Assembly: GCF_004010195.1 (NCBI RefSeq)
Contig: NC_057749.1
Coordinates: 5,869,339 to 5,918,160, forward strand
From: Chiloscyllium plagiosum
Lineage: Eukaryota
Direction: 5' to 3'
Length of the DNA stretch: 48,822 bases
Below the pieces are notes generated by a model, which was not told the origin of the DNA, made no database searches, and saw only the letters and a program-made list of their open reading frames with translations. Below are positions 4,378 through 47,334 of the stretch, in pieces (the first letter of the stretch is position 1; every line of letters starts with the position of its first letter). The translations under genes were made by a program, and so were the position numbers.

Positions 4378-4775
4378 CAGCACTTGGCCCACAGGGGCCG
4401 ACCAGACGTCCCAGTCACCGCCCATTTCAATTCCCCTTCCCACTCTCTTTACGACATGACCATCTTTGGCCTCCTGCGTTGCCACAACAAACCAAACCAT
4501 AAATTGGAGGTACAACACCTGATCTTCTGCCTGGATGGCCTACAGCCCAGAGGACTCAACATTGAGTTCTCCAATTTCAAATAACCTCCCTTCCCTCCCA
4601 CTCCTCCCAGCCATGTACCAGATTCATTCATCCCATCAACCAAACAGGTCATACCCTCTACCTGTCTTCAGCTATCCTCATGTCACCATCCTGATCCCGC
4701 CACCCATTTTATCTGCAGCTCTCCTTACACCCACCCCCAGTCCTGAAGAAGGGTTACACCCGAAACGTTGACTTG
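4378..4775 (+). mobile_element. Penelope-like element 3' fragment: GIY-YIG endonuclease C-terminus, 3' UTR and hammerhead motif
   Basis: ORF 4384-4584 PVTAHFNSPSHS...KLEVQHLIFCLDGLQPRGLNIEF is homologous to the GIY-YIG ORF at 46731-47216; ends in a hammerhead core at 4739-4773. Confidence 0.8.
4739..4773 (+). ncRNA. Minimal type I hammerhead ribozyme motif (PLE-associated)
   Basis: agtc-CTGAAGA-A-gggt(tac)accc-GAAAC-GTT-gact: stem I agtc/gact, stem II gggt/accc, palindromic AACGTT stem III, GUU triplet. Confidence 0.8.
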
Positions 4776-6741
4776 ACCACATTCTGGTGCTGCAGGACTT
4801 GAACCCTGGCCTCCTAGCCCAGGACTTGAGGGACTCTATCACTGCATCTGAATAGCTTTCTATCCTTCCTTTCCTAAATCCCCAACAAATCACCTTTGCC
4901 ACTTTAATCAAGGAACAAAATACAAGCACTGTCTACTTGGGCAATGGAACTATATCAAAAATAAAGGAAAGGTAGGAAAACAGGGGAGGTTCTAAATCAA
5001 AATGGAGTTGGAGTCGCCTAAATCTTGTTTTCCTTCAAGTCAATATCCATTGAGAAATAAATGTTAGTAACAATACCTAAAGCAATCAAACATGTATTTA
5101 AAAAAACTCATAACACAGCCAGCTTTTACAAAGTTGACAATATCCTTGTTATTTTGAATGCCCACTGTCAAATCAAATCTCCTTGATTTTTCAAATAACC
5201 CACAACAAGTCACATGTTTCACCTGCTAAACGAACAAGTTAATCTCCTCACTCTTTCCAACATTTCCATTTTTTAATATTTTCTTCTCTTTTCAATTTTT
5301 GCATTTTTAAAAGTCTTCTCATTTTTTAATATCTAATTTTTAATAACTCCTCATTCTTACTTACAATCTTAAGTTCATCAATCCTTGTCCACAATCAAAC
5401 TGAATAGCCTTTGTCTATTCACCATAGTAAAACCCTTAATCTTTTATAAACCTGAATTGAGGCTGTAGTAGGAACAGCTTGATTATCTCAAAGACCATGG
5501 CTTCTGTTCAATTCTAGTGATGTCAAATGTGCTTGACTGGCAAAATGAAAGAAGGAAAGAACATCTATATAAGAGATAAGTATAATTCATTTTGACTCTC
5601 TTTGCCTGCACAGCAGTTTTAGACTGATTTTATTATATTACAGTCACTCACTTGCAATTTTTAAAAAAATTCACTTGTGGAATTATGGGCATCACTGGCT
5701 GGACCAACATTCGTGGATAACAATATTGTCCAGAAATCAGCAGGTTTGGTGACCCACTCCAATTTAACCATTGGGAGTGATACTGGGTTAAAGATGTTTT
5801 AAGGCCAAACTTGCATTTCCTAAGAATTTAAAATCTTCCTTTATGGCTGCCTATAATTTCTTTAGGAGCTTCACTTATTTTTAGTCACTTTTTCAGTCTG
5901 AACAGACTGTAAGTTTACTTTGAGGCAATCTGATGAATTAATTGTGAATCTTTCATTGGTGATGAAAGTTGAGACAATGTGTTGTGTTACTGGTTTAACC
6001 ACCCTGCTAAAGGAAGAGGGTTTCGATGTGTGAAACTGCTGGAATTTGTTAAAATATAAATAGATGTAACAGCCTGTTTACATATAACTGTTCTCAGAAT
6101 GTGCTATTGCAGAATATCACCACTGTTGTCATGGCTTCTTTTTCAAGCCTTAGTGATTAGGCCTCACTTTTTTTTTGTCTTGGAAAGTTTTAGTACTTTT
6201 TCATCTGTCAAAATCCATTTACTTGGTCCCACATCCTCATCTCTTCATTCTATCGTCACATTTTGAGATGTCTATTGGCGAAGATGCTATATAAAGACTG
6301 TATTCAATTCAATGGAAGCTGTAAGGTGCTATAAGGAAAGATGAGGCACTGAAATTTAAAATGAGATAATAGCTTCATTTGAACAATGGCACATCCACCT
6401 TCAAATTTTGTGTCTGCCTTGCAGGAAATATATAGACTTATAGGTGAGTGCACAAAGGATGCCTACATCCTTAAAGGATGGCTAATCCTTAAATTTAGAA
6501 AGCGATTTAATGCGAAAAATGTTTATATTGTGATTTCCTTTGAAGAAGAGAGAGATTGGACTGTGGAAGGGTGCTGCGGTTTTGCTTTATTCATTCATGG
6601 GATGAGGGTGTACCTGGCCAAGCTAACGTTTATTGCCCATCCCTAATTGCCCAGAGGGCAGTTAAGAATCAACCATGTTGCTGTGGGTCTGGAGTCACAC
6701 ATAGGCAACACCCAGGTAAGGATGGCAGTTTCCTCCCTAAA

Positions 6742-8410
6742 ATAGACAATAGACAATAGACAATAGGTGCAGGAGTAGGCCATTCAGCCCTTCGAGCCTG
6801 CACCGCCATTCAATATAATCATGGCTGATCATTCCTAATCAGTATCCTGTTCCTGCCTTATCTCCATAACCCTTGATTCCACTATCTTTGAGAGCTCTAT
6901 CCAACTCCTTCTTAAATGAATCCAGAGAGTGGGCCTCCACTGCCCTCTGGGGCAGAGCATTCCACACAGCCACCACTCTCTGGGTGAAGAAGTTTCTCCT
7001 GAGCTCTGTCCTAAATGGTCTACCCCGTATTTTTAAGCTGTGTCCTCTGGTTCGGCACTCACCCATCAGTGGAAATATGTTTCCTACTGCCACAGTGTCC
7101 AATCCTTTCATAATCTTACACGTCTCAATCTGTGAAACTCAAGGGTATACAAGCCCAGTCACTACAGTCTTTCAGTGTAAGATAATCCTGCCATTCCAGG
7201 AATTGANNNNNNNNNNNNNNNNNNNNNNNNNNNNNNNNNNNNNNNNNNNNNNNNNNNNNNNNNNNNNNNNNNNNNNNNNNNNNNNNNNNNNNNNNNNNNN
7301 NNNNNNNNNNNNNNNNNNNNNNNNNNNNNNNNNNNNNNNNNNNNNNNNNNNNNNNNNNNNNNNNNNNNNNNNNNNNNNNNNNNNNNNNNNNNNNNNNNNN
7401 NNNNNNNNNNNNNNNNNNNNNNNNNNNNNNNNNNNNNNNNNNNNNNNNNNNNNNNNNNNNNNNNNNNNNNNNNNNNNNNNNNNNNNNNNNNNNNNNNNNN
7501 NNNNNNNNNNNNNNNNNNNNNNNNNNNNNNNNNNNNNNNNNNNNNNNNNNNNNNNNNNNNNNNNNNNNNNNNNNNNNNNNNNNNNNNNNNNNNNNNNNNN
7601 NNNNNNNNNNNNNNNNNNNNNNNNNNNNNNNNNNNNNNNNNNNNNNNNNNNNNNNNNNNNNNNNNNNNNNNNNNNNNNNNNNNNNNNNNNNNNNNNNNNN
7701 NNNNNNNNNNNNNNNNNNNNNNNNNNNNNNNNNNNNNNNNNNNNNNNNNNNNNNNNNNNNNNNNNNNNNNNNNNNNNNNNNNNNNNNNNNNNNNNNNNNN
7801 NNNNNNNNNNNNNNNNNNNNNNNNNNNNNNNNNNNNNNNNNNNNNNNNNNNNNNNNNNNNNNNNNNNNNNNNNNNNNNNNNNNNNNNNNNNNNNNNNNNN
7901 NNNNNNNNNNNNNNNNNNNNNNNNNNNNTCTTTAAAAGCTTTCCAGTCCTCAGTTTTCCCACTTATCTTAGCTATGTTATACTTTTTCTCTTTTAACTTT
8001 ATATATTTCTTTACTTCCCTCGTCAGTCACGGCCGCCCATGTCTCCTCCTGGGATCTTTCTTCCTTTTAGGAATGAACTGATCCTGCAACTTCTGCATTA
8101 TACACAGAAATATCCGCCATTGTTCCTCCACGGTCATCCCTGCTAAGGTATTGCACTATTGAACTTTGGCCAGCTCCTCCCTCATAGCTCCATAATTCCC
8201 TTTTTTCAACATAAGTACTGTTACTTCCGACTGTACCCTCTCCCTCTCAAATTGCAGATTGAAGCTTATTGTATTATGGTCACTACTTCCCAATGGCTCC
8301 TTCACTTCGAGGTCTCTGACCAATTCTGGTTCGTTACACAATACCAGATCCAGAATTGCCTTCTCCCTGGTCGGCTCCAGCACCAGCTGCTCTAAGAATC
8401 CATCTCTGAG
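6742..8410 (-). mobile_element. CR1-clade LINE (5'-truncated) spanning the assembly gap
   Basis: (TAGACAA)n tail at 6743-6764; RT C-terminus in ORF 6839-7111 (RRNFFTQRVVAVWNALP); endonuclease end in ORF 8156-8383 (EPTREKAILDLVLCN...LGSSDHNTISF). Confidence 0.85.
7207..7928. other. Assembly gap (722 N)
   Basis: Run of N. Confidence 0.99.
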
Positions 8411-8973
8411 GCATTAGCAAACCTTCCAGTTCACCAAACATTAGTGACTCAGATGGGTTTTTCCAACAATCCACAATGGATTCATGGTCATCATTAAACC
8501 CTTACTTCCAAATTTTACTGAGTTCAAATTACACCATCTGCCACGGCAGGATTTGAACCCAGGCCCCCAGAACCTTACTTAGATCTCCGGATTAACAGTC
8601 TAGCAATAATACCACTAAGCCATTGCCTCCCCCATTTGTTCTTACAGATTTGCACAGATGTGGAGAATTGGATCCAGGAATTTTCTAATAACCACTTGTA
8701 ACTCTACTTGTGTTATTTTAATTGATCTAAAGCAATCAATCTAGTAACAATTGAGGAACAGTTTTGTAGACAGACACTGAGAATGCTGGAGAAACTCAGC
8801 AGGTCTGGCAGGAGAGAGAAACTGAATGAAAATTTCAAGTCCGTTATGATTCTTTGTCAGAACTGGAATTTTGTGAAAGTTGATTATGCTGACAGCTGGG
8901 CGGGCTTCCCTTTTGCGTGTGCTCCAGTCTTCTGGCCTCTAGTAAAGCTGAGGTGATTTGGATTGTACCGTTT

Positions 8974-9082: not shown

Positions 9083-9229
9083 ATCGCTGATTTGCGATGT
9101 CATTTGGTAGAAGAGAAATCCATAGGTGTTCCTTTGTTGCTGACCTTGGGACAGTACTGCATTCTACACATAAACAATCTGATACTGTCTGGAGGATGCA
9201 AGGTTTGTAAATATTTCTAATCAACCTGT

Positions 9230-9810: not shown

Positions 9811-9988
9811 ACATGATGTGGAGGTGCCGGAGTCGGATTGGAGTGGACAAAGTCAAAAATCACACAACACGAGATTATAGTCTAACAGGATTATATGAAA
9901 ATACAAGCTTTTGGACTGACACCTGATGAAGGTAAACTTTCAAATAAACCTGTTGGACTATAACCTGGTGTTGTGTGATTTTTAACCT
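9811..9988. mobile_element. PLE-derived fold-back remnant ('AAATAAACCTGTTGGACTATAACC' family) with a partly deleted hammerhead
   Basis: Inverted arms AAAAATCACACAACAC...TTATAGTC and GACTATAACCTGGTGTTGTGTGATTTTT; CACCTGATGAAGG at 9920. Confidence 0.65.
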
Positions 9989-11020
9989 GCTTTAGGCCAG
10001 CTTGATGAAGTTACTGGCATCCAGAAGGGAAGATCTGAAATCTAGCGGAAATACAAGTTTGGCCTTAAAGCACCTTTAACCCAGTATCACTCACATTGGT
10101 TACATTGGAGTGAGTCAGCAAACCTGTTGATTTCTGGACCATAACATTAGCTATAAATGTTGGCCCAGCCAATGATGCCCATATTCCATGAGAGAATAAA
10201 ACCAAATTGCAAGTGAGTGACTGGAATATGATAAAATCAGTTTAAAGCTGCTGTGCCGGCAAAGACAGTCAAAACCAATTACACTTATCTCTTACATTGA
10301 TGGTCTTTTTTTTCCTTCATATTGTTATAGTCAAGCACATTTAACAGAACTAGAATTGGACGCCAGTTATGGTCTTTGAAATAATTGTGTGATTCCCACT
10401 AAAGTTTCGTTTCAGCTTTATAAATGATGAAGGGCTTTAATAGGGTGAATGGACAAAGGCTATATGAGCTGATTGCAGAAAAGAGTTGATGAACTGAATT
10501 TTGTCACGAAGGATGAGGAGCCATTTAAAAAAAGGGAGGAGAGTTTAAAAAATGGAGAAGTTAAAAAGAGTAAGATTTTAAAAATGGAAAAATTAGAAAG
10601 GGTGAGGAGATGAGCTCCTTGTCAACAAGGATTTTTTCAGAAATTCAAATTAATGGTGTACGGCATATGATGGCTATAGGAAAAACGTTTTAGAACGAAG
10701 ATTTTGCTGCCATATGGATTAATTGAGGTGACTAGCATTAGCACTTTAAGGGATGCAAGGTACATAGCTAATTAACTTATTGAAAAATGATCATGGCTGC
10801 AGATGACAAATGGTGGTGAGGGTACAAATAAAACAAGTTATCATAATTTATAACAATTAATGACTATAATTTAAAAGAAAACTAACTTATAAAATAAGAG
10901 AAGGATGGAATAATTCTGTACATTTCCATACACAAGTTATTATAATATATTGCAAACTTAAGGTATCCTTAACTTAGAGAATAAAAATGAAATGTCCACT
11001 GGATATCCATTTGTATTTTA

Positions 11021-11605: not shown

Positions 11606-11631
11606 AACATGACCACTGCATTAAACTACAT

Positions 11632-11826
11632 AGCTGGAAATGTGTTGCTGGAAAAGCGCAGCAGGTCAGGCAGCATCCAGGGAACAGGAGAATCGACGTT
11701 TCGGGCATGAGCCCTTCTTTAGGAACGTCGATTCTCCTGTTCCCTGGATGCTGCCTGACCTGCTGCGCTTTTCCAGCAACACATTTCCAGCTCTGATCTC
11801 CAGCATCTGCAGACCTCACTTTCTCC
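11632..11826. mobile_element. Non-autonomous PLE-derived fold-back element with a perfect 69-bp inverted repeat
   Basis: 11632-11700 is the exact reverse complement of 11724-11792; loop region holds a degenerate minus-strand hammerhead; flanked by cattaaact(a/c)catag at 11619-11633 and 11826-11840. Confidence 0.85.
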
Positions 11827-12507: not shown

Positions 12508-12972
<465 letters not shown>

Positions 12973-13335
12973 TAGCTCCAATGATTTCTTTGTGTGGAGG
13001 AGTCTAGCCATTTTTGTAATCTTAACAACAGAAAGTGCCTGAAAATGTGACTGAATTAGTGAATTAGTTTGGTTTGCGAAAGATGTACTGGGATTTGTCT
13101 TCATGATCAAGGCTAAAGGTGACAGGAAATTTAGGTCACAGAGCTTCCCAGATGGAATTTCACGATCCCTGCCCTATCTTTGCATGAAGATAATTGGTGA
13201 GGTTATGATTCCCACGCAATTGTTCCTGTATCCATCCTGTTTAAGGTCTCTTTTCAACCACGGTGAGGAAAGTGATGGTAGGCCCTGGAAAGTTTAGAAA
13301 AGGCCTTGATGTGTAGTCCACTTGACCTAACACCA

Positions 13336-13531
13336 GGAGAAAGTGAGGACTGCAGCTGCTGGAGATCAGAGTTGAAGTGTGTGGCGCTGGAAAAGCACAG
13401 CCAGTCAGGCAGCATCCGTGGAGCAGGAGAGGCGATGTTTCGAGCATAAGCTCTTCATCAGGGATCATTCCTGATGAAGAGCTTATGCTTGAAATGTTGA
13501 GTCTCCTGCTCTTCAGATGCTGCCTGACTGA
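13336..13531. mobile_element. Non-autonomous PLE-derived fold-back element with two back-to-back hammerhead cores
   Basis: Perfect 14-bp TSD ttgacctaacacca (13322-13335 and 13532-13545); arms 13402-13462 and 13470-13530; CTGATGA-A-gagc(ttat)gct(c/t)-GAAA on both strands. Confidence 0.85.
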
Positions 13532-13720
13532 TTGACCTAACACCACACAGGACAATGGCCAGTTGGTGACCTGTACTCCATCGATAATGACCCCAGCTGT
13601 TTGCATGTGGTCCTGATCTCGTGTTGAGGTCTCCAGGGTTGTAACCCCATCAGAACCAGCTCTGAACCATTGCTATAGCATCTCCTTTGGGCTCAATGCT
13701 CAGAGGCAGCTGAAGCAAGT

Positions 13721-14128: not shown

Positions 14129-14802
14129 CATCTCTGGAGGACAGAACATTGTATAGAAATCCAGATATACTTTGTAATAATTTTCAAATGCAGAACTAGG
14201 GCAGGGTTAGCAAGTGATGTAAAAGTCGACTCACTGTAATTTGCCTCAAAGCCACATAGTGACAGGCGTGGAATATTTTTCCTGGGTTTAAGGTACTCTT
14301 GTTTATTAGGTTAAATAAAATTTATGTCTTTAGAGGAAATTCTGAGTTCAGCATTATTTTTAGCATGCTGGCTAATGTGCTTGTGAACTGTTTTAACGAA
14401 GCCATTAATCCAATAAGACAGTTTTATTTGGTTTTAATTGTGCATATAAGATTAATTAGTGCACTGATCTTTAAGGGTAAAGGTAGAATGGTGAGTCACA
14501 CAGTATGAAAAGAAAGAAATGAAGCCTTGCATTTATATTGCACCTTTCATCACCCCTCATCTTCCCAAAGTACTTTATGGCAAATGGAGTACTTTTGATG
14601 TATAGACAGTGTTATAATGTAGGAAGCATACAGGGATTTAACCAGATTCTCCCCATCTTAAAAGCTGATTGTTTGAAATGCTGAGCAAGGTGAGACAGGA
14701 TAACTCCAAAGTTATTGTTCAGGATCACTTTGCATGAGGCATCTTTTTTTTTCCTTAGTCCCTCGGGATTGAGGGCAACTTGCTTCCTCTCCCACACAGT
14801 AG

Positions 14803-14930
14803 GTTCTGATGAAGGGCTCCGGCCCGAAATGTCGATTTTCCTGCTCCTCAGATGCTGCCTGACCTGCTGTGCTTTTCCAGCAAAACACTCTAAACTCCGA
14901 TCCCCAGCATCTGCAGAACTCGCTGTCTTC
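14803..14930 (+). mobile_element. PLE terminal-repeat fragment with hammerhead core
   Basis: CTGATGA-A-gggc(tccg)gccc-GAAAT-GTC at 14806-14833, followed by the same GATGCTGCCTGACCTGCTG...CCAGCATCTGCAG terminus as the 11724 and 47330 copies. Confidence 0.8.
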
Positions 14931-15584
14931 TAAGTTCTGAGATGGACCAAACGCAGGCAAAGGGGATTAGTTTAATTATGAAAACTGGGCAGGGTAGCCA
15001 GGTTGAGTCAAAGGGCTGTTTCCATGCTGTAGACCTCTATGACCCTGCGGTTGACATATCCACTGTACCATCAGCATCTCCAGAACAGCTGATGCCTAAA
15101 GGGTTGGCTGGATGAGGCAGGTCAAGGTTTGTGCATTCCCTCTGATGACTCAACTTGGACTCTGAATGTTTCTATTTTCTGTTTGGAGTCTTCCCAGATG
15201 TACCTTCTCCAATTTCACCAACCACAAAACTGGGTATCCCTGAGTTGGACCACTTCCAGAATGCTCTGAGGACCATTTCTAACATGTTTAGGCTCTGCTC
15301 CTGGGATTCTCCAGCTGAGTGACTGAGCCCCGAGTGGAAGAATTGCTTCCAGGAGGTTTGGCAATGGGCATATGCTTAACATGCCCCTCCCAAGGTTGAC
15401 ATTAGCAAATTTCAATTATATCAGCCCTTTAACATAACAAAAGAACTCAAGATGTTTCACAGTAGTGTTACCAAACAAAACCTGAATAGTAACAGAGGTG
15501 AACAATGGCTTGGTCAAAATGGAAGATTTTAATGATCACGTGAAAAGAGTCAAGAGAGGTAAATGATGTAAATTTTTGTAACAA

Positions 15585-15750
15585 AATCCTGTAATTCCCT
15601 CTCTAAAGGCATTGGGGGTTAACCCACATCAGGTGGACTGCAGCAGTTAAAGAAGGCAGCTCATCACCACCTTCTTAAGGGGCAACTAGGGACGGGCAAT
15701 AAATGCTGACCCAGCCAGTGACACCCCCATCCCACAAAGGAATGAAAGAA
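15585..15750 (+). mobile_element. CR1/L2-type LINE 3' end (old family)
   Basis: GGACTGCAGCAGTTAAAGAAGGCAGCTCATCACCACCTTC...GGGCAATAAATGCTG; minus-strand copies at about 17890-18110, 31205-31826 and 44700-45205. Confidence 0.6.
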
Positions 15751-16065
15751 ATCCCTGACAGTTTGTTTTACCTAATGAGGCAATGCTTATGTTCATTCCC
15801 TGAACATGAAAAAGAATGGTGGGCTTGGATATTGAGGCCAACTGGAAGGGCTCAAGGGAATTCCAACACTTGGTGGCTGAAGGCAAAGCTGGAAGGAGGG
15901 ATGAAAATCAGGGACACACAAGAAGTCACTACTAGAGTAGTGTAGTGATGTAAAGGCTGAAGAAGATTGCAGAGCAAGAAGGATCAATGAGTCAATATTT
16001 TCCAGTTAACTTCCAATTTCACAATGCACTGGAGATGCCTAATTGTGAAACAAAACAAAGAAATT

Positions 16066-16770
16066 AGAAACCAAAACAGAAATTTCTGGAACAGCTCAGC
16101 ATGTCTGGCAGCATCTGTGGAGTGACATTTGATTAATGTTTTGGGTCCAGTGACCCTTCTTCAGAACTGACGGGAGCTAGGAAAAAGTTTTTTTTTCTGC
16201 AGACGAAAGGGTGGAGGGAGGGGGTAAGGAATAAACAATAGACGAAGGTAGAGCCCAAAGAGAGATAAGAACAGTTGGACAGACAAAGGAGTGGATGACA
16301 ATCAGCCAAGGAGAATGAATAGCTACTAATGAGGCCTATTAATGGCTAACATTGGGTAATGTGTAATCACAGACCATGTGGTAATAAGGCAGAGGTGGGT
16401 ACTGCAGATGCTGGAGAGTAAAGTCAAGATTAGAGTGGTGCTGGAAAAGCACAGCAAGTCAGGCAGCATCCGAGGAGCAGGAAAATCGACGTTTTGGTCA
16501 AAACCACCTCATCAGGAGTAATAACAATTATAACATGTGATAATAAGGCCTGGCATGTGTGTAAGGACATGGGAGAAGGTTCCTCTAGCCCTAACTTTCT
16601 TGAATGCGATATTGAGTCCAGAGGATTGTAGGGTCCCCAAGTTGAAAATGAGATGTTGTTCTTTCAGCTTGCTCTGAGCTTCGCTGGAGCACTGCAGCAA
16701 GCCTGAGACAGAGATGTTGACCACGGGACAGGGTGGGGTGCCGAAGTGGCAGGCAATGGGAAGCTCATGG
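16066..16770 (-). mobile_element. Penelope-like element 3' part (GIY-YIG remnant, 3' UTR, hammerhead terminus) with a nested PLE terminus at 16391-16533
   Basis: ORF 16512-16724 contains KLKEQHLIFNLGTLQSSGLNIAF; degenerate hammerhead at 16133-16168; colinear with 37326-37935 in the opposite orientation. Confidence 0.8.
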
Positions 16771-17711
16771 CCTAATCATGGCTGAGCAAGAATCTCTCCT
16801 TCTGCCTGCCATTGGCGTTAATTGGAAGGTTTTGTAGGTTGTTTGTCCTCATCATGAGCACATCTGCCTTGGTTGTCAATCCCTGAGCTGGGCTCAAACT
16901 TGACGTTTCTGATTCAAAAGCAGCTGAGGCAACCCACTGGGCCACTTTGCAGGGATGTTTGGGCCCCTATTTACTTGTCCATCTTGAGCACAGCCTTCGC
17001 TTTTGTAATCATTTCGAATCCAGCACAATGTTACAAAGCATTTTCCTTCTGTTTTGGCTTCGCTCCAGAAGAAAATTAGGTCAGTCCGAGATACTGAACA
17101 AGTAATGAAATTTCAGCCCAACAGCTGTTAGTGTGTGTGTGTTTCTTTTAAAAATATACTTTCAATGGCCTTCCCCATTAGCATCAGCACATGAAACACA
17201 TGCAAATACACAAATGGAAAAAATTCGCAGGCCTTTGAAATACATGTCACATCAAAGTGTTTGAAGCGCTGAATTCTAAAGTACGATGTGAAAATAATAT
17301 TGCACACAATCAATACATTCGGAGAGATGTGGGAGGGCCAAAAACACAGCATATAACATGTGTAAGATAATAAAAAGAATGTCACAGAGTCTGCACTTGA
17401 CCTAAGGATTAGGAGATTTCCCCAATTGGGTTTCTCCTCCAGAATGTCATTAGCTACTTCAAGGAAGTTGAAAACAATTGCCTAAATGATTACCTGGCAT
17501 CACTTTGCAGTGACCGTGAGATAAATTAAGTCTTTCCGAGATGTTGCCTCGTGATGGGGAATATGTCTTCACTTACCTCTGTGATCTAAAGTGCTCTCTG
17601 GCAAACAAGGAAATCTGCATTACACTTTTCAATGACTCCATCAGTAAATTCAATCTTCCCTCCACTGGAGCTCCATTGCGCAGAAATTCTCCATCTGCAA
17701 ACAAAAAAAAT

Positions 17712-17834
17712 CCTGCTGATTCTGGAAATCAGAAACAAAAACAGAAATGACTGGAAAAACTCAGTAGGTCTGGCAGCATCCGTAGAGAGAAAGCAGAGTT
17801 AATGTTTTGGGTGTAGCGACCCTTCTTCAGAACT
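17712..17834 (-). mobile_element. PLE terminal-repeat fragment ('GGTCTGGCAGCATCTGTGGAG' family) with decayed hammerhead
   Basis: Ends GACCCTTCTTCAGAACT; related copies at about 1798-1886, 8775-8865, 18500-18600, 19715-19852, 21215-21305, 22505-22606, 33705-33888 and 40091-40192. Confidence 0.7.
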
Positions 17835-18179
17835 CAAGAGTCTTGCTGCAGCTGTACAGGACATTGCAATTGATGTCCCCCAACTTTTTTTTATTTACTC
17901 GTGGGACATGGACATCACAGCACTTATTGCCCATCCTAGTTGCCCTTGAGAAGGTGGTGGTGAGCTACCTTCTTGAACCGCTGGAGTCCATTTAGTGTGG
18001 GTAGACCCACAATACCGTTAGGGAGGGAATTCCAGGATTTTGACTGAATGGTACTAAAGGAATGCAGACATATTCGCAAGTCAGAATGTTGAGGGTTTGA
18101 CTGGGAACTTGAAGTGTTCTGTATAAGGTGGCAACATAGGTGCAGTGAGGGCAATTCAGTGGAACTGCATTAGGTTGAA

Positions 18180-18683
18180 GTCTTTGTCTTTGATAAGTTT
18201 AAGCAGGTTGTCCCTGTACTCAAAGAATGAGAGGTGATCTTATTGGAATATTGAGGATGTTTGACAGGGTAAATGCTGAGAGGGTGTTGTCCGTCACTGG
18301 AGGCATCTAGAGCTAGTTACCAGAACAGTTTCAGAATAAGAGATCTCATGCTTAGAACCAAGCTGAGGAAGAATTATTTTCTCTCCTGGTCATGAGTATT
18401 TTGAATTCTTTATCCCGGTGAGTTGAAGGTTATAGGGGACAGGCAGGAATGTAGATTGAAGCTACAATAGATCAGTCACAAGAAAACTCAAAGAACTACG
18501 GGCGCTGAAAATCAGAAATTGCTGGAAAAGCTCAACAGGTCAGGCAGCATCTGCAGGGAGAGAAAGCAGAGTTAAGGTTTTGGGTCCAGTCTTCAGAACT
18601 CAGTCCTGATCTTACAGATTGGTGGAGCAGGCTTGAGGAGCCAAATGGCCTACTCTCTTGCTCCTATTTCATATGGTCTTATG
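18180..18683 (+). mobile_element. Old CR1-type LINE 3' fragment with a nested PLE terminus (about 18480-18600)
   Basis: GAATGAGAGGTGATCTTATTG...AATGGCCTACTCTCTTGCTCCTATTTC tail. Confidence 0.65.
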
Positions 18684-18963
18684 CAAGTACAATTCTTCAT
18701 ACAGAATAAACCATTGCAGTACATATGTGAAAGAATGGAGTAGTGCTGATAGAGCCAATGTTTGCACCAGCTGTAGAACTCGCCCAGCTTCAACAGACTT
18801 CCAACATTGGCAAGATACGTTCGAATAAGGGAGGTGTTTCAGCCCATTTAGCTTTCACCATCTGGCATAGCAAGTGGCACATCCTGTAGCTGCTCTGTGA
18901 ATGATTTGATTACCATGTCCTCACCAATACATCCTGGTAACAGGTCTTGTTTGCTGCCAGCTT

Positions 18964-19350
18964 CATACAGTCATAGAGATGTACAGCATAGAAACAGATC
19001 CTTCGGACCAACCCGTCCGTGCCGACCAGATATCCCAACCCAATCTAGTCCCACCTGCCAGCACCCTGCCCATATCCCTCCAAACCCTTCCTATTCATAT
19101 ACCCATCCAGATGCCTCTTAAATGTTGCAATTGTACCAGCCTCCACCACTTCCTCTGGCAGCTCATTCCATACAAGCATCACCCTCTGTGTGAAAAAAGT
19201 GCCCCTTAGGTCTCTTTTATATCTTTCACCTCTCACCCTAAACCTATGCCCCTCTAGTTCTGGACTCCCCCACCCCAGGGAAAAGACTTTGTTTATCCTA
19301 TCTATGCCCCTCACAATTTTGTAAACCTCTATAATGTCCCCCCACAGCCT
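18964..19350 (-). mobile_element. CR1/HER1-like LINE 3' fragment
   Basis: Nearly identical to 3734-4085; ORF 19045-19314 contains FFTQRVMLVWNELP. Confidence 0.88.
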
Positions 19351-19959
19351 AAGGAATATACCCTGGTGTTGGAGCAGACTTCTTTTTCCTATGTTCCTAC
19401 CTCATCAAACATGCACCTTTCTCAACACTGAACCCTGCTTTTAGACATTGGGAGAAATGTAACTACACAGAAAATGAAAGTGTTTGGGCTCAGCGGGAGA
19501 GGTTAATATGCTAAAACTCCCAACATTCCACCCTCCTCTAACTTGTCGGCTTTAATGAGAGGCATGATGAAGGTTGCTTAACTCAGTCCGCAAGCCTTGG
19601 TTGATCTTTTGAGCTCTTTTTTAATGAGGCTACATGTTTTTTTTTAAAATGACCCACTTTGAATTTGACTCTGGAAGGGTTGATTTCTGGACTCGGAAAT
19701 CCTGACAATGATTAAAAATTAAAAAAGCATGACAGATGCTGGAAATCATAAACAAAAACAGAAATTGTTGGAATGGCTCAGTCGGTCCAGCAGCACCTGC
19801 AGAGAGAAATCAGAGTTCATATTTTTGGGTGCGGTGACCCTTCCTTAGAACTTGTGACAATGACAATGATTGTTGAGCTCAAGGAGCAAGTGCCTTTCTT
19901 TTTATCTGCTGGAGCTAACCAATGTCAAAACCGTTCATGAGGTCCTTCACATCAGTCCT

Positions 19960-20255
19960 CGGGGAGGGGAGTGGTGGGACAGGGTAGGGGCCGGGGGAGT
20001 GGGAAGTGATGGGACAGGGTGGGCAGGAGGTGGTGAGATGTTGGTGGGGCGGGAGGTGGGAGGGTTGTGGGAGGGGTAAGCGGGATGGGACATGCTGGGG
20101 AGGGGGAGAATTTTGGGATAGGGTGGTTTGGAGGGGAGTCATGGGACAGGGTGGGAGCAGGGGAGAGGGGGAAGTGATGGGACAAGGTGGGTTGGGTGGG
20201 TGGAGGCGTAGGTGATGAGATGTTGGTAGGGTGGGGAGGTGGGAGGAACTCCACA
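19960..20255 (+). repeat. G-rich imperfect tandem repeat (GTGATGGGACAGGGTGGG-like units)
   Basis: Repeated (A/G)TGGGACAGGG and many GGG runs. Confidence 0.75.
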
Positions 20256-21019
20256 TGGGTGATAAGTGCATGACGGTCATTGGGCGCCTGTGTTAGGCCA
20301 AAGATGTCTTTGAGCGGCAGTACCTGTGACTGAGCAGTGATTTCCCTGTGTGGGGAGGGGTGGTAAAGCTGACTTAAATGTAAAATGCCCCATTTCCTTC
20401 TGGCTGAGGGGTTGTACTCCGCGAGACCTCATCCCTGCAATCAAAGAAGAAAAGCTTTAAATGTTGCAACTTGTTATAACTCATATGGATAACCTCGAGA
20501 GTGAGTATCCAAAAAGAAGCTGAACACAAAAGGAGTGTCAGGACATTACTCAACTTCTTTCAGAGAAGAGAGGCCTTTAAAAATTGACAGAGGAAAAACA
20601 AGACATGCAAATGCCTTTTACTGAGATAGGTAGTGCTATCTTCTGGAACAGCAAGCTATAAATGTTAGATTCAAGCAGCACTTTGACAATGCACCAGACG
20701 CTATATTTAGTGATATATCCAGATGCTGATACTATTGTGCTAACCCAGTGTTTGCAAAAATAAGCCTGTGAGTGAATTGCTTTCTGTTGTTAAGATCTAA
20801 GCCAGATTAACGTCAGTTTTGTTTACACATTCATTTTGTGGAAATAAATATTTAGAGAGAGATTATTTTTTATTAGTTTTTTTTAAAGAAAATGAGATTG
20901 TTCTTATGAAAAGCAAAAAGATTTGAAGGAGATTTAACTGGGGTTCTCCGAATGATTGAGGTATTAGAACAGCTCTTCCCAGAACATTTTCCCACTGTTA
21001 TTCCAAATCAAGCCTTGAA

Positions 21020-21203
21020 AATTGAATTGAATTGAATTTATTGTCACATGTACCGAGGCACAGTGAAAAGTTTTGTCTTGTGAGCAATACAGGCAAATCA
21101 CAGTGTTAAGTAGCATAGATAGTAAATAATAGGTAAACAGTGGCAAAAACAAAAACACAGGTACAGGTGAATGTTAAGAGTTTGTGAGTCCATTCAGTAT
21201 TCT
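21020..21203 (-). mobile_element. Rex1/Babar-like LINE 3' UTR fragment with (CAATT)n tail
   Basis: Near-identical to 34537-34720. Confidence 0.8.
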
Positions 21204-21561
21204 GCCACTGGAAACAAAAAAAGCTGGAGATCACAGAGGGTCAGGTGGCATCCATGGAGGGAGAGCAAGCTAGCATTTTGAGTCCAGGTGACTGTCCCTC
21301 AGAGTTTGACAATCATCAACCTCTTGAGAGAGGACTGAGAGTAGAGCCAGGGGGCTGCTGGGAGAGCTGCAGCCTGTTAGAGTAAATTAAAAAAAAAGTC
21401 CTTTACCCTTTCCCAGTCCTTACTAGAAAATACAGGAAAATGGAGAGATTCTGTCGTTGCCGTAGAGAATGGAAGCGATGAATGAATTCAACACTGCCGT
21501 TATGCTGAAGAGTATGCCACGGAACAATACACTGTTGTAATTGAGCTTTCAACAACAAAAA

Positions 21562-34536: not shown

Positions 34537-35400
34537 TTGAATTGAATTGAATTTATTATCAAGTGCCCACAGTGAAAAGTTTTGTCTTGCGAGCAATACA
34601 GGCAGATCACAGAGTTAAGTGGCATAGATAAGTAAATAATAGCTAAACAGCAGCAAAAACAAACACATGGGTACACTGTACAGGTGAATGTTAAGAGTTT
34701 GAGAGTCCATTCAGTATTCTATCAACAGTAGGGTAAACACTGTTAAGAAACCAGCTGGTGCATGTGTTCAGACTTCTGTACCTTCTCCCTGATGGTAGAG
34801 GTTGTAGAAAAACATTGCCAGGGTGGGATGGATCTTTGAGAATGCTGGCAGCCTTTCCTTGACAGTGGGCCTGGTAGCTGGATTCTATAGATGGGAGGTT
34901 GGTCTGATTGTCTGGGCCGAGTTCACCACTCTCTGTAACCGTCTCCGATCTTGAATGGTACAGTTGCCATATCAGGTACTGGTACATCCAGACAGAATGC
35001 TCTCGATGGTGCACCTATAAAGGTTAACAAGAGTATTTGCCGCCATGCCAAATTTCCACAGCTGCCTGAGAAAGAAGAGACATTGTTGGGCCTTTGTAAC
35101 CAGTGCGTCCACATGAAGAGTCCAAGAAAGCTTGTTGTGGATGACCACTCCCAGGAGCTTGACACTCTCCACTCGTTCCACCTCTGTGCTGTTAATGTGT
35201 AGGGGGGGGGCATGAGTAACATCCCGCTGAAAGTCAGTAATGAGTTCCTTGGTTTTGCCTGCATTGAGAGCTAGGTTGTTCTCAGTGCACCATTTTTCCA
35301 GGTCTTCCACCTCCCATCTGTAATCTGTTTCATCGCCATCTGAGATTCAACCGACTATGGTGGTGTCATAAGCGAACTTGTAAATGGCATTAGTCTGGTA
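34537..35400 (-). mobile_element. Rex1/Babar-like LINE 3' fragment (degenerate RT C-terminus)
   Basis: Minus strand reads IYKFAYDTTIVG*ISDGDE (FADD motif mutated, in-frame stop), then WCTENNLALNAGKTKELITDF...ERVESVKLLGV...LYRCTIESILSGC; (CAATT)n tail. Confidence 0.85.
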
Positions 35401-35593: not shown

Positions 35594-36293
35594 ATTATAG
35601 TCCAACAGGTTTATTTGGAAGTACTAGCTTTCCGAGCGCTGCTCCTTTGACAGATAGCTGGTGGGGCAGGATCATAAGACACAGAATTTACAGCACAAAA
35701 TCAGAGCAACTGATACGATATATTGAACAAACCTCGACTGTGGTTAATCTTTTAGGGGTTGCAGGTTTCGATTCATTAATATATAAATCCCAATTTATAA
35801 ATTATAAAATGTCACATTGATTGACTGGCTGCAGATTGTGTGCTTTTTGAGCAAAATAGAATGTATCTGCAAATACAATTCCTACTTTGGAAATAGAACC
35901 AGTCTGACTCAAGGTTGGAATACATACAGACTCTAACCTTACACCTTTAATGCATTGTCTGAGCTGAGATGTCACCTTTCTTTATAAAACCTTAAGTTAT
36001 CGCGAGAATGTGACTTGAAAGAAGTTCTGTGATTTACATATTAAGGAATCAAAACCTGCATCGCATTCTAAAAGATTAACCGCAATCTATGTTTGTTCAA
36101 TCTATCATATCAGTTGCATGACGTTATGATCTTGTGCTATGAATTCTGTGTCTTATGATCCTGCTCCACAGCCACCTGATGAAGGAGCAGCGCTCCGAAA
36201 GGTAGTGCTTCCAAATAAACCTGTTGGACTTTAACCTGGTGTTGTGTGATTTTTAACTATGTCCATCCCAGGCCAACACTGGCACCTCCTCAT
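35594..36293. mobile_element. PLE-derived fold-back element with about 200-bp inverted arms and a hammerhead motif in each arm
   Basis: Arm about 35594-35790 mirrors about 36030-36235; + strand cac-CTGATGA-A-ggagc(agc)gctcc-GAAAG-GTA-gtg at 36173-36207; catagtag flanks at 35586-35593 and 36294-36301. Confidence 0.8.
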
Positions 36294-36789: not shown

Positions 36790-37935
36790 ACAAAACACAC
36801 AAGTTGCTGGAGAAACTCAGCGAGTTTGGTAGCATATGTGGAGAGAGAAACAGAGTCAACGTTTTGACTCCAGCACTCTTCTTCGGTTCAGTCCATTTAC
36901 CTCCTCCCTCCTCAGTATCCATTCCAGGTGAAGTAATGCTTTATCTGTGCTTTACTCAATCTAGCCTACCGTATGCGCTACTCACAATGTGGTCTCCTCT
37001 ATATTAGATTAGATTAGATTAGATTCCCTACAATGTGGAAACAGGCCTTTTGGCCTAACAACAAGTCCACACCGACCCTCCAAAGAGTAACCCGCCCTCA
37101 CCCATTGCCCTCTGACTAATGCACCTAACACTATGGGCAATTTAGCATGGCCAATTCATCTGACCCGCACATTTTTCGATTGTGGGAGGAAACCCACACA
37201 GACATGGGGAGAATGTGCAAACTCCACACAGACAAACAGTCACTTGAGGCAGGAATCGAACCCGGGTCCCTGGTGCTGTGAAGCAGCAGTGCTAACCACT
37301 GAGCCACCATGCCACCCCAAGGCAAGGAGAAACCAAGTGTAGATGGGATGGCTGCTTCACAAAACATCAACACTCCGCCCACGAAAAAGACCCTGAGCTT
37401 CCCGTCGCCTGCCACTTCAACACACTACCCTGCTCCCTGGCCACAATCTTTGTGTCAGGCAGTGCTCCAGTGAAGTGAAGCTCAAGCTGGAAGAATAACA
37501 CCTCTTGGGAACTCTACAACCTTCTGGACTGTATATAGTATTGAGTTCAATAATTTTAAGGCTTATTCACTCCTCCCCACATTTTCCCCCACCCCCATAT
37601 ACCAGGCCTTGTTACCACATGATTTGCTATTACACACAACCCGTTGTTAGCCATTAATAGTCCCCATTAGCAGCCATTCATTCTCCAAGGCTAACTGTTG
37701 TCTACTCTTTTGCCTGTCTAACTGTGTTTTTCTCTCTCTGAGCTCCATTTCCACCTACTGTTTACTCCTTGCCTCCTCCCCTCCACCCTACTTCTGCATA
37801 AAAAACAAGTTCTTCCCAGCTACCATCAGTTTTGAAGACGAGTTACCGGACCCCAAACGTTAGCTCTGATTTCTCTCCACAGATGCTGCCAGTTCTGCTG
37901 AGTTTTTCCAGCAATTTCTGTTTTTGTTTCTGCAA
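36790..37935 (+). mobile_element. Penelope-like element (inverted terminus, GIY-YIG remnant, 3' UTR, terminus), interrupted by an HE1 SINE
   Basis: SQCGLLYI (ends 37005) continues as GETK at 37326; decayed hammerheads at about 36853-36892 (-) and 37829-37864 (+). Confidence 0.75.
37006..37318 (-). mobile_element. HE1-type SINE
   Basis: (AGATT)n tail, core and head in reverse complement. Confidence 0.88.
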
Positions 37936-39914: not shown

Positions 39915-40702
39915 AAACGTTATAGGAAGGATGTTGTGAAACTTAAAAGCGTTCAGAAAATATTTACAAGGGTGTTGCCAGGGTTGGAGAGTTTCAGCTA
40001 TAGTGATCTTCCCCAAGATTTTCAATCCTGTTATTTATAAAACAAACAGCCATATTTCATATGATATTATACCCATGTAAGTTAAGAGTCAGCTTTGACA
40101 AAGGTCAGTTTGACCCGAAACATCAGCTCTTTTCTCTCCTTACAGATGCTGCCAAACCTGCTGAGATTTTCCAGCATTTTCTCTTTTTGTGTTAAGTTAA
40201 GAGTCTGACTTTCTTACAAGTTCATTATTCATTACCCAGGTTTCTTTTGTAATGTATGTTTGTGTTATTAAAAATATATTTATAATTTATAGTGAGAGGC
40301 TGAATAGACTGGGGCTATTTTCCCTGGAGAGTTGGAGGGTGATTTTATAGAGATTTATAAAATCATGAGGGATATGGATAGGATAAGTAGACAAGGACTT
40401 GTCCCCAGGGTAGGGGAGTCCAAAACTAGAGGGCATAGGTTTAAGGTGAAAGGGGAAAGATTTAAAAGGGACCGAAGGGACAATTTTTTTATGCAGAAGT
40501 GGTGCGTGTAGGGAATGACTTGCAAGAGGAGGAGATGTAGGCTGGTACAATTACATTTAAAATTATTTGGATGGGTATTTGAATAGGAAGAGATATGGGC
40601 CAAATGTTGGCAAATGGGTCTAGATTAATTTAGGATACCTGATGTCATGGATTAGTTGGACCAAAGGGTCTGTTTCCATGCTGTACATCTCTGTGGACTC
40701 TT
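39915..40702 (+). mobile_element. CR1/HER1-like LINE 3' fragment interrupted at 40007-40287
   Basis: GGATGTTGTGAAACTT...TTCAGAAAATATTTACAAGGGTGTTGCCAGG resumes as GAGAGGCTGAATAGACTGGGG; tail GGGTCTGTTTCCATGCTGTACATCTC. Confidence 0.8.
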
Positions 40703-42427: not shown

Positions 42428-42517
42428 ATCACCACCTGGTGAAGAAGCAGCTCTTCGAAAGTTGGTGATTTCAAATAAACCTGTTGGACTATAACCTGGT
42501 GTTGTGTGATTTTTACC
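42428..42517 (+). mobile_element. PLE terminus with degenerate hammerhead
   Basis: cac-CTGGTGA-A-gaag(cagct)cttc-GAAAG-TTG-gtg followed by AAATAAACCTGTTGGACTATAACC. Confidence 0.7.
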
Positions 42518-43759: not shown

Positions 43760-45892
43760 AGTTTTTTTGTTCCAAGTACCATGTGCATTCACTTGGAGAG
43801 CAGAAGCTTGAACACACACACACACACACACACAGCATGTTCAAGAACAGCTTGTTCCCTGCCATTATTAGACTGATGAGTGGACTCTCTAACTTCACAG
43901 ACTATTATCTGTATTCTACCAACATGTATTTTTATGAATGTGGTTACACTATGATAATAATCAGATAATATAATTTGTTTTTGCAAGATTGATTAAGGTT
44001 TCAAATATTGGCCTGTTCCTCGTCAAAGGAGTATCATGAAATCTTTTGTATCCATCTGAACAGATTGACAGGGCTTCACTTTACGGCATCTTTGACAGTG
44101 TTCTCAGAGTATGACATGGGTGTGATGTGCACTTAGGCTTGAGAGAGGGATTTGATTCAGGGACCTTTTGAAGCAGAGGCGAGAGTGTTATTAACTGAGC
44201 CACAGCTGATAGCTGCATAATGTCCATATAAAACCACAATAGCTTCCTTCTATTGAACTGTCTGTGGTGACCAGTGCTTATTGTGACATTTGAATAGTCT
44301 AAATTCAACTAAATTACCAAATTCCTGTATCAGAGCATGTGGCAGCACTATTACTTCGGAATCAGAACTTTGATGCTTCAAGCCCTGTTGTAACTTGCCT
44401 TCAGTGTCTTGCAATTTCTTTCACTTGAGATGTTAAGTCAAGTCCCCATCTATTCCCCATCTGTATCGTCACCATCCATTCAACTGGATAGAAATCTGTT
44501 GACAAGATGATATGTAGAAGAGCAGCAACAGTGTCTTGAGGTTATCAACCCCGCCCGTCATACCCAAAGTCTTCAAGAATTAAAGATTAAGGTTGCACAG
44601 CTAGAAGAAAATGATGAGACAAGTTGATGCTATTGATCACATAATTTGGTTATTAACTAACATTACATACTGGGTACAGTTATGTCTGCAACTCATTTTT
44701 ACTTGTTCATGCGTCAGCATTTATTGTCCATCCCTAGTTGCGCTGGAGAAGGTGGTGGTGAGAAGGAGGAGGAAGTTCTTGAACCGCTGCAGAGCTGATC
44801 ATCTAGGGACACACACAGTGTTGGTAAAGAGGAAGTTATAAGACATCGAGCCAGTGACAGTGATGGAACGATTATATATGTCCAAGTTAGGATGGTGAGC
44901 TGCTTGGAGGAGAAATAGCAGGTGGTGGCATTCCCATGTATCTGCTACCCTTTTAGATGGTAGAGATCAAGGGTTTGGATAGTGATGTTGAAGAAGTCTT
45001 GGTGAGTTGCTGCAATGCAACTTGGAGATGGTATGCACTGCTGCTACTGTGTGCTGGTGGTGATAGGAGTGAACGTTGAAAGAGGCGGATTGGATGCTCA
45101 TCAAGCAGGTGCTTTGACTCAACTAGAGTGTTGCTTGAACTGTGCCATCCAAGCAACTGGGAAGTAATCCATCCCATTCCTGACTTGTAGATGGAGTCAG
45201 GAGGTCTTCCTAGTCGACGTAAAAACAATGACTGCAGATGCTGGAAACCAGAGTCTAGATTAGAGTGGTGCTGGAAAAGCTTTCAAGGCATTGTTGAGAC
45301 TGCACTTGGAGCACTGTGCATTGTATATGGTTTCCATCTCCTTACTGAAGAAAGAATAGACCTTGCTTCAGGCTGGATCTGGGATGGTGTGATTGTCTTG
45401 AGAGGAAAGATTGAGCACTTTGGGCATAGGCTCTTTGGAGGAATGAGAAGTGAGCTTATTGAAACATTTAAGATTTTGTGGGAGTTTGACAGAGAAGATG
45501 TTGCGTGGGTATTTCCCCTCATGGTGGATTTCAACTCAGGAGCACAGTTTCAAAATATGGGGTCTCCCCACTGATAATTGGAAAATTTCGTAGGGGGTCG
45601 TTACTGTAAATGTTGTTCCTCTGAGTGGAAGCTGGGTCTTTGATTGAGAGAATGAGGACTGCAGATGCTGGAGATTGGTGAGGCCTTTACCGAAGACTGA
45701 TTGTTCATCCTCAGTGAGTGATAGGACTTGGGGGGTGGTAAAGACGAGGCCTTTACTGAAGACTAATTGTTCATCCTCACTGGTGAGGTGTGAATATATT
45801 CAAGATTAAGTTAGCCAGATTTTTGATCTACAAGTGAGTCAAGGCCACAATCAAATCAGTCATAATCATGATTGTATTGAATGGGGTGTCTT

Positions 45893-46140: not shown

Positions 46141-46634
46141 GTCTTAAGAAGCCAAAGGTTCTTATTCTTTATGATTCTACATAGCCCCTGTGACAGAAAC
46201 AGACCATTCAGCCCAACTGATCTATGCTAGCTTTCTTTGTTCACATTCTAGGTAAAAATTTAATTTGCTTGTATTTATTAACTCAGTCTTCTTTCTCTAA
46301 CCAGGGCTGGGGTCATTTGATCTCATTGTTCCTTGTGAAAATAGACAAGCTCATTGAGGTCTGTGGAAGATGCCACTTTTAGGATATTTAAGTGGGAAAA
46401 TGTATCACAACCCATGGGGATAGCACTCTGGAAATTGAGTCCTACTATTCCCCGAGTCATCATGAATGTTAAAGATTCTAAAAGTATGCAAAGATTCCCC
46501 AATTTGCATTTTCTCCTCATTGCAGGTTGACAGAAAGCACAGAACATGTTTCTATACTTAACAAATACTGACGTCTAGATTAGAGTGGCGCTGGAAAATC
46601 ACACCAGTTCAGGCAACATCCGAGGAGCAGTAAA

Positions 46635-46668
46635 ATTGACGTTTCGGGCAAAAGCCCTTCATCAGGAA
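46635..46668 (-). ncRNA. Minimal hammerhead ribozyme motif
   Basis: Minus strand ttc-CTGATGA-A-gggc(tttt)gccc-GAAAC-GTC-aa; core intact, stem I weak. Confidence 0.7.
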
Positions 46669-47298
46669 TACAGGCAGAGAGTCTGAAGGGTGGAGAGATA
46701 AGTGAGAGGAGGGTGGGGGTTAGGGAGATATTAGCATAGAGTACAATAGGTGAGTGGGGGAGGGAATGGAGGTGATAGGTTAGGGGGAGGGGGGAGTTGG
46801 TAGGTGGAAAAGAAGATAGGCAGGTAGGACAAGTCATGGGGACGGTGCTGAGCTGGAAGTTTGGAACTGGGGTGAGGTGGGGGAGGGGAAATGAGGAAAC
46901 TGTTAAAGTCCACATTGATGCCCTGGGGTTGAAATGTTCCGAGGCGGAAGATGAGGCGTTCTTCCTCCAGGCGTCTGGTGGTGAGGGAGTGGCGGTGAAG
47001 GAGGCCCAGGACCTCCATGTCCTCGACAGAGTGGGAGGGGGAGTTGAAATGTTGGGCCACAGGGCGATAGGGTTGATTGGTGCGGGTGTCCCGGAGATAG
47101 TCCCTAAAGCTCTCTGCTAGGAGGTGTCCAGTCTCCCCAATGTAGAGGAGATCGCATCGGGAGCAACGGATACAATAAATAATATTGATGGATGTGGAAG
47201 GCTCCTTTAGGCCCACTCACCTATTGTACTCTATGCTACTTTCTCCCTACCCCACCCTCCTCTCACTTATCTCTCCACCCTTCAGGCTCTCTGCCTGT

Positions 47299-47334
47299 AT
47301 TCCTGATGAAGGGCTTTTGCCCGAAACGTCGATT
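47299..47334 (+). ncRNA. Minimal hammerhead ribozyme motif
   Basis: attc-CTGATGA-A-gggc(tttt)gccc-GAAAC-GTC-gatt; canonical core and GUC triplet. Confidence 0.8.

Follow-up and report, generated by a model that had tools for sequence, protein, structure and literature searches.

Hammerhead ribozymes borne by Penelope-like elements (PLEs) represent an association of a kind known since 2014 (Cervera and De la Pena, PMC4209133), and the minimal hammerheads of these retroelements cleave poorly in vitro (PMC4209133). The available portion of a further report (PMC8557442) describes PLE insertions as often 5′ truncated, accompanied by an inverted truncated copy which adjoins them, and provided at one end with a tail of 30 to 40 bp, all of which are regarded as hallmarks. 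For an element of the anole, the portion of the study available to us (PMC11167929) describes a reverse transcriptase (RT) which initiates internally at two sites, both target strands being cut and extended in vitro, and a hammerhead which cleaves in the presence of protein, with rescue by a compensatory C3G/G8C mutant; in the same portion, hammerhead mutants are without effect on insertion, and no transcriptome sequencing ends are recorded at the cut site. Weak activity which depends on dimer formation or on protein has been reported for such motifs in both studies (PMC4209133 and the cited portion of PMC11167929). Here, we describe a dispersed set of hammerhead-like motifs in a 48,822-nucleotide stretch of the Chiloscyllium plagiosum genome (assembly GCF_004010195.1, contig NC_057749.1, positions 5,869,339 to 5,918,160), which is referred to as the window, which contains two runs of N, and to which all coordinates below refer. 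These motifs are very probably the 3′-terminal modules of several endonuclease (EN)-encoding PLE families, whose copies are 5′ truncated and mostly decayed.

The whole window was searched with a descriptor composed of CTGANGA, zero or one nucleotide, a stem II with a minimum length of 4 bp and a loop of 3 to 10 nucleotides (nt), and GAAA. Eight sites were retrieved (4743+, 13461−, 13471+, 14806+, 29249−, 36176+, 46665−, and 47303+), whereas 300 dinucleotide-preserving shuffles averaged 0.063 sites and never exceeded 1, and all eight harbor an extra nucleotide after CUGANGA. A looser pattern produced 15 matches where 5.0 were expected. Hammerhead-like cores are present at all eleven sites cited in the initial annotation of this DNA, and the observation itself is, therefore, confirmed; the individual core readings are as described in general, the exceptions being the sites at 11703 (minus strand), which reads CUAAAGA, at 42443, which reads CUGGUGA, and at 16143 (minus strand), which has an A at G12.

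Seventeen copies could be divided into hammerhead parts and form the basis of the per-feature counts. CUGANGA is intact in 11 of these and GAAA in 12, position 16.1 is a U in all 17, and position 17 is a base other than G in 15, while eight copies retain every position of the catalytic core (C3 U4 G5 A6 N7 G8 A9, G12 A13 A14 A15.1, U16.1, and H17). The G10.1-C11.1 pair is present in 15 copies and replaced by G-U in copies A3 and E. Stem II, which the initial annotation had described as paired in every case, pairs throughout in 15 of 17, and its pairing at 29223 (minus strand) includes G-U pairs. The extra nucleotide, which had been assigned to all copies, occurs in 16 (as A in 14) and is not a peculiarity of this locus, having been published as characteristic of the minimal hammerheads of PLEs (PMC4209133). 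The palindrome attributed to stem III is preserved as a self-complementary CG or GC at positions 15.2/16.2 in seven copies; of the other ten, eight are one transition removed from it, B4 is removed by two transitions, and C1 by a transversion. Much of the core decay falls at CpG sites, and G12, which is preceded by C, is kept in only 2 of 10 family B copies. Two decayed B copies (UUGACAA at 40095 to 40101 and UUGAGAA at 33798 on the minus strand) display a swap of the core pair to U3/A8, as reported for the Cercyon elements of Schistosoma (PMC4209133), which could alternatively represent two independent transitions.

The pairing of the helices was assessed on 14 model-aligned copies of families A, B, and D, in an alignment which was itself fitted to the hammerhead structure. 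Paired cells amounted to 90.7%, as opposed to 81.9% in shuffled alignments (a value reached by 0 of 500 shuffles), and 11 to 48% of cells were paired in slid-alignment controls; double-sided change was found at five of the eight pairs (reached by 18 of 500 shuffles). The double changes distinguish A from B and D at two pairs, and GGGC from GAGC within A, while C and E possess further, unrelated helix sequences in an identical layout. As the copies represent families, the double-sided changes reflect few independent events, and the covariation which had been claimed for stems I and II is thus right in substance, albeit founded on a handful of such changes. A covariance model built from the A, B, and D copies (R1, filters off) recovered 14 copies at an E value below 0.001 and, when used to search the window, found no further family; because C1 scores only 11 bits, R1 is considered to read mostly primary sequence. 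For D and B2, the minimum-energy fold adopts the layout of a hammerhead.

The link to PLEs, which had been guessed from the motif, is supported by coding remnants. A 161-residue frame upstream of the A6 hammerhead is endonuclease-like (Pfam GIY-YIG, E value of 0.11), and over its first 110 residues it resembles two database proteins, with E values of 7e-40 (76% identity) and 1e-38 (73% identity), one of which harbors a partial RVT_1 match together with GIY-YIG, while the other displays a YIDD motif in the alignment. The longer of the matched proteins has 93 relatives of at least 852 residues (approximately 900 residues). In the two relatives which were scanned, RVT_1 is central and GIY-YIG is C terminal, and in relatives at 76% and then at 45 to 52% identity, the scores of RVT_1 and GIY-YIG exceed the Pfam cut-offs or come close to them. 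When 95 such proteins were compared to the window by tblastn, three significant loci emerged, at 4369 to 4581 (plus strand), 16584 to 16796 (minus strand), and 46803 to 47235 (minus strand), all of which match the C-terminal ends of the query proteins. Each locus lies upstream of a hammerhead on the same strand, namely, that of D at a distance of 162 nt, that of B1 at 420 nt (approximately 270 nt once the inserted copy A5 is subtracted), and that of A6 at 138 nt. The A6 remnant was matched by 88 queries, with 69% identity over 131 residues and an E value of 9e-47, and identities to common queries are 69% for A, 41 to 42% for B, and 52% for D. At an E value of 0.01, a Pfam search of 121 open reading frames of at least 75 residues detected neither RT nor GIY-YIG and missed the EN remnants, and a PDB search with P0003 gave no match.

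Self-comparison and alignments divide the copies into family A, with seven hammerhead-bearing copies and two fragments, family B, with six copies with a recognizable core and four badly decayed ones, family C, with three copies with a core and three truncated ones, and the singletons D and E. The suggestion of at least four terminal families is a fair one, given that A, B, and D are associated with coding remnants of different divergence; by its structure alone, C may be placed with the PLEs, and E would be left outside any family.

Several findings weigh against the assignment of these motifs to PLE termini, or against the ribozyme nature of individual copies. A strict descriptor, which adds a palindromic 15.2/16.2, U16.1, H17 (non-G), and at least three contiguous helix I pairs, retained a single site in the window (4743+), and among the 17 copies, every one of the features counted above, palindromic helix III included, is combined in only three (46665−, 47303+, and 4743+), the others departing from the full core by single changes. 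The Rfam hammerhead models, which had been proposed as a check, gave no match in the whole window, either at the gathering score or at E values up to 10, or in two 66-nt stretches; these models expect a closed helix III. Family A folds best as a nonhammerhead hairpin in which UGAUG is paired with the cleavage region, its helix I contains a U-U mismatch, and fold z-scores are weak (−0.35 to −2.96). No RT-coding remnant was found in the window by tblastn with the 95 proteins, and no full element was seen, which implies that truncation has occurred in every copy either inside the endonuclease domain or beyond it; families C and E are without any coding remnant. Lastly, the frame which opens at the AUG within CUGAUGA of A7 stops after 18 codons (by eye), and the layout of the Poseidon element is, therefore, inapplicable. 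Even with these points taken into account, the assignment to EN-encoding PLE families is retained as by far the most probable reading.

The anatomy of the insertions agrees with the described behavior of PLEs. Two alternative 3′ ends exist in each of families A, B, and C: those of A lie 65 and 99 nt past the predicted cut, 34 nt apart, those of C lie approximately 52 and 92 nt past it, 39 nt apart, with an AC-rich extra piece, and B displays a similar two-end pattern. The hammerhead is separated from the first 3′ end by 52 to 68 nt and from the second by 92 to 99 nt. Four clear head-to-head pairs were identified, at 9.8 to 10.0, 11.7, 13.4, and 46.6/47.3 kb, and in all four a single arm bears the tail; three of the four are flanked by one direct repeat of 14 to 15 nt. 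A single direct repeat around a pair indicates that each such pair represents a single insertion event.

One of these pairs is formed by A6 (46573 to 47235, minus strand; R1, 51.6 bits), a 5′-truncated PLE which includes the EN remnant at 46803 to 47235 and a hammerhead at 46632 to 46671, with a predicted cut after 46638 and a short, tailless 3′ end at 46573, and its inverted partner A7 (47212 to 47429, plus strand; R1, 54.4 bits), which is 5′ truncated 91 nt before the hammerhead (47297 to 47336, predicted cut after 47330) and carries a 34-nt tail, ending at 47429. The arms are 94% identical, and a 14-nt target duplication surrounds the pair (46557 to 46570 and 47430 to 47443). Within the pair at 13336 to 13531, A2 (minus strand, hammerhead at 13428 to 13467) has the tail and A3 (plus strand, hammerhead at 13465 to 13504) ends early; both arms begin at the core and are separated by 7 nt, and the 14-nt target duplication is located at 13322 to 13335 and 13532 to 13545. 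The pair at 11629 to 11825 consists of A1 (minus strand, hammerhead at 11689 to 11728), which bears the above-mentioned CUAAAGA core and a short 3′ end, and A1b (plus strand), which begins inside helix III and possesses a tail; its flank repeat is 9 nt when exact, or 15 nt with one mismatch. The fourth pair, at 9813 to 10003, is composed of C4 (minus strand, with tail) and C5 (plus strand, without), both truncated inside or after the hammerhead. Along this pair (9857 to 9981, minus strand), Rfam returned a weak hit to MIR8643, a plant microRNA family (30 bits against a cut-off of 135), which was rejected because it corresponds to the C4/C5 inverted-pair hairpin. A further copy, C1 (36028 to 36296, plus strand; hammerhead at 36170 to 36210), which has a GGAGC/GCUCC stem II and a 39-nt AC-rich tail, has a probable head-to-head partner in C3 (35592 to 35792, minus strand), the flank repeat being short and ambiguous.

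The remaining copies include the solitary units A4, A5, B4, B6, and E. In family A, these comprise A4 (14800 to 14931, plus strand), a short unit with tail and a hammerhead at 14800 to 14839; A5 (16395 to 16521, minus strand), which has a tail and a decayed hammerhead (16482 to 16521), is nested in B1, and is flanked by repeats of 9 nt exact (16 nt by eye, with one mismatch); and A8 (45219 to 45280, minus strand), a 3′ fragment which consists of the tail region only, without a hammerhead, and is 97% identical to 47368 to 47429. B1 (16060 to 16796, minus strand) is a 5′-truncated PLE which is split by A5 and includes the EN remnant at 16584 to 16796 and a hammerhead at 16129 to 16170. B2 (17725 to 17836, minus strand; hammerhead at 17795 to 17836, A at G12) is a short unit with tail which starts 4 to 5 nt before the core, B3 (18508 to 18602, minus strand) is a short unit with an internal deletion in its hammerhead, and B4 (19721 to 19854, minus strand) has a tail, a decayed CUAAGGA core, and an 11-nt target duplication 12 nt before the core. 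B5 (37388 to 37932, plus strand; hammerhead at 37826 to 37867) is a long copy with U at C3 and C at G12, upstream of which, at 36895 to 37424, EN-like matches are weak and not significant (E values of 0.03 to 0.39). B6 (40091 to 40192, plus strand) is a complete short unit of 102 nt with the UUGACAA core, in which U3 occurs with A8; its start coincides with the first base of helix I and immediately follows a 13-nt target duplication (40078 to 40090 and 40193 to 40205). C2 (42432 to 42518, plus strand; hammerhead at 42430 to 42470) is a short unit with a CUGGUGA core, a GAAG/CUUC stem II, and a short 3′ end. D (4369 to 4775, plus strand) comprises the EN remnant at 4369 to 4581 and, downstream of it, an intact minimal hammerhead (4737 to 4775) with a predicted cut after 4769, and E (29131 to 29305, minus strand) is a single insert of approximately 170 nt with a hammerhead-like motif at 29210 to 29255, flanked by a 10-nt exact repeat (13 nt by eye).

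Seven hammerhead-tail copies (B1, A5, B2, B3, B4, B10, and B7) are clustered on the minus strand within 6.6 kb (16060 to 22622). Apart from one other repeat (15582 to 15708 and 17918 to 18042) and a local one (19963 to 20246), the copies have nothing but their modules in common, and they therefore represent individual insertions as opposed to a tandem array. Neither a head-to-tail tandem array nor a tandem pseudo-long terminal repeat (pLTR) was found in a self-comparison of 15001 to 23500 and of all copies.

Every copy in the window is 5′ truncated, and most are decayed and short, many beginning 0 to 8 nt from the core. This 5′ edge was also observed genome-wide, when contigs of a DNA sequencing run of the same organism (X1) were aligned to 46400 to 47600: 723 contigs lose their likeness just before 47299, four bases ahead of the core, 348 lose it just behind 47431, and 49 join 46669 directly to 47299, where two arms meet head to head, each at its position −4. 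The summed depth in this run reaches millions on the element as opposed to 16 to 65 in its flanks, a value which does not represent a copy number. The recurrence of short units which start at helix I suggests that the template RNA may have its 5′ end there. A hammerhead cut after position 17 cannot create an end at helix I; a transcription start or another processing event at this place would do so. Long B and D copies read YCAGTY at the start of helix I, which we take to resemble the initiator consensus.

In the mechanism which we propose on the basis of published PLE biochemistry, the element protein would nick its target with a stagger of approximately 9 to 16 bp, and RT would initiate internally on the RNA, at either of two sites, thereby generating the optional tail of 34 to 39 nt. 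Copying would then proceed toward the 5′ end of an RNA in which the end of the RT-EN frame is followed by approximately 140 to 270 nt of noncoding sequence, the hammerhead, and the 3′ end. The module itself, as read from the copies, is a minimal type I hammerhead with a helix I of 4 bp, CUGANGA, a single unpaired nucleotide, a helix II of 4 to 6 bp, GAAA, and a 4-nt palindromic helix III. Both target strands would often prime, giving rise to head-to-head pairs within one target duplication. A bolder version of this scheme holds that the main output is a run-off unit of approximately 96 or 131 nt, which extends from the first base of helix I to either RT start site and is often head to head within one duplication; this we advance tentatively, and it may well prove incorrect. 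If it were true, the template RNA would begin at the ribozyme, by transcription start or by processing other than the hammerhead cut, and both-strand priming, so far shown only in vitro, would occur in vivo.

The short units (approximately 96 to 131 nt) might alternatively constitute a separate, nonautonomous retroposon family which merely borrows the recognition module of the PLEs, is copied in trans, and resembles a short interspersed nuclear element (SINE) or a retrozyme. Their two discrete edges and the great abundance of the repeat in the X1 run are what such a family would display, as are the completeness of B6 between its target duplications and the predominance of short copies in the window, and a preprint argues, in its available part, that animal retrozymes derive from the pLTRs of PLEs (10.64898/2026.07.22.740005). 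Long copies of the very same families, however, run upstream into EN coding sequence, the head-to-tail tandem array which defines retrozymes is absent from the window, and helix III is not of the canonical retrozyme type, and we accordingly regard a separate family as improbable compared with truncation products of the PLEs themselves.

Whether the motif cleaves is a distinct matter. By analogy, the predicted ribozyme would cut after position 17, probably only weakly, and as a dimer or with the help of protein. RNA reads on the element derive about equally from both strands, and 93% run on into unlike sequence; such reads represent read-through from other copies and hence provide no evidence on expression or cleavage of the element. 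No pile-up of read beginnings or ends was apparent in one RNA run, a poly(A) single-cell library which offers little power in this respect. Co-folding of dimers yielded trivial swapped duplexes without an extended helix III and is thus uninformative on dimer action. The motif could be a conserved RNA structure of the PLE 3′ region for protein binding or RT initiation which is hammerhead-like but noncleaving, and this would accommodate the poor in vitro cleavage of the published minimal PLE hammerheads (PMC4209133), the insertion-competent hammerhead mutants and the want of RNA ends at the cut in the available account of the anole element (PMC11167929), the lack of read-end pile-ups mentioned above, and the preference of family A for another fold. 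It is difficult to reconcile with the retention of all catalytic-core positions across families which otherwise share no sequence, with a U at 16.1 in every copy and a non-G at position 17 in nearly all, or with the protein-assisted cleavage and C3G/G8C rescue of the anole hammerhead (same portion of PMC11167929); a noncleaving role is, therefore, deemed unlikely. That the motifs are chance matches in unrelated repeats, such as the tails of long interspersed nuclear elements (LINEs) or SINEs, is scarcely credible, for although repeat copies are not independent, so that eight sites overstate the number of events, and LINE remnants do occur in the window, at least four sequence-unrelated families share one architecture where 0.063 matches per window are expected, the copies are without poly(A) or microsatellite tails, and GIY-YIG remnants, not LINE open reading frames, precede the hammerheads.

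The window contains a number of other features. Between the 11.7- and 13.4-kb pairs, a 155-residue open frame at 12508 to 12972 (plus strand) matches Pfam Ion_trans with an E value of 5e-16 and probably represents one of the exons of a gene for an ion channel. Near E and unrelated to it, a tandem array with a 59-bp period occupies 29527 to 30372, together with a 97% identical copy of 300 nt at a distance of 546 bp. Remnants of other retroelements are indicated by a weak Exo_endo_phos_2 match at 8159 to 8413 (minus strand) and by an ALKBH8_N-type match at 34975 to 35346 (minus strand), ALKBH8_N being often seen in the RT open reading frames of LINEs. The sequence at 3150 to 3400 (plus strand) looks like a tRNA-derived SINE head; an ARAGORN scan of the window for tRNA genes returned none.

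Through these motifs, the known ribozyme-retroelement association gains several families and a probable host among the cartilaginous fishes, and its overall picture remains unchanged. The particular value of the finding may reside in the very numerous sharp-ended short units of this genome and in the insertions paired within a single target duplication, which would represent natural footprints of PLE integration, i.e., internal RT start, tail, and two-strand priming, steps which have so far been studied mostly in vitro and in a single element from a lizard. With its exact position at helix I, the 5′ edge would furthermore serve as a clue to where the PLE template RNA starts, and it bears on the purpose of the hammerhead. 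Searches of the literature, both on sharks and in general, and of supplementary file 2 of PMC4209133 revealed no account of the families reported here; a search of papers for the sequence strings returned only primers in unrelated publications, and a metagenome scan for the family A motif gave no match.

With respect to described systems, the motifs most closely resemble the minimal hammerheads of PLEs (PMC4209133), with which they share the type I topology, a short helix I, the unpaired nucleotide between A9 and 10.1, the G10.1-C11.1 pair, and a helix III which lacks loop 3 and of which only a palindromic 15.2/16.2 is left. Common to both are also the many sequence families per genome with compensatory helix changes, the predominance of solitary truncated copies, opposite-strand pairs 100 to 700 bp apart, and the U3/A8 variant, here present in B6 and one further decayed B copy. 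They differ in helix II, which is 4 to 6 bp here and 7 to 8 bp in the Schistosoma families, and in host, no cartilaginous fish being named in the main text or supplementary file 2 of PMC4209133. As far as the available portion of the report on Poseidon PAc of Anolis carolinensis extends (PMC11167929), that element similarly positions its hammerhead 65 to 100 nt upstream of the RT start sites, possesses two adjacent start sites which define an optional tail of 30 to 40 nt, and has both target strands cut and extended, in keeping with pairs within one target duplication; the PAc reading frame starts at helix II, whereas that of A7 closes after 18 codons. The C-x4-C-x2-C motif, ascribed to Neptune and Nematis in the available part of PMC8557442, occurs in the RT-EN linker of the relatives, a region outside the fragment retained in the window. 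Animal non-long-terminal-repeat retrozymes, in the available part of their description (10.64898/2026.07.22.740005), share the type I topology and a helix III which is short and palindromic, and have likewise been proposed to originate from PLEs, but are organized as head-to-tail tandem arrays thought to give rise to circular RNAs, whereas the copies described here are dispersed or head to head.

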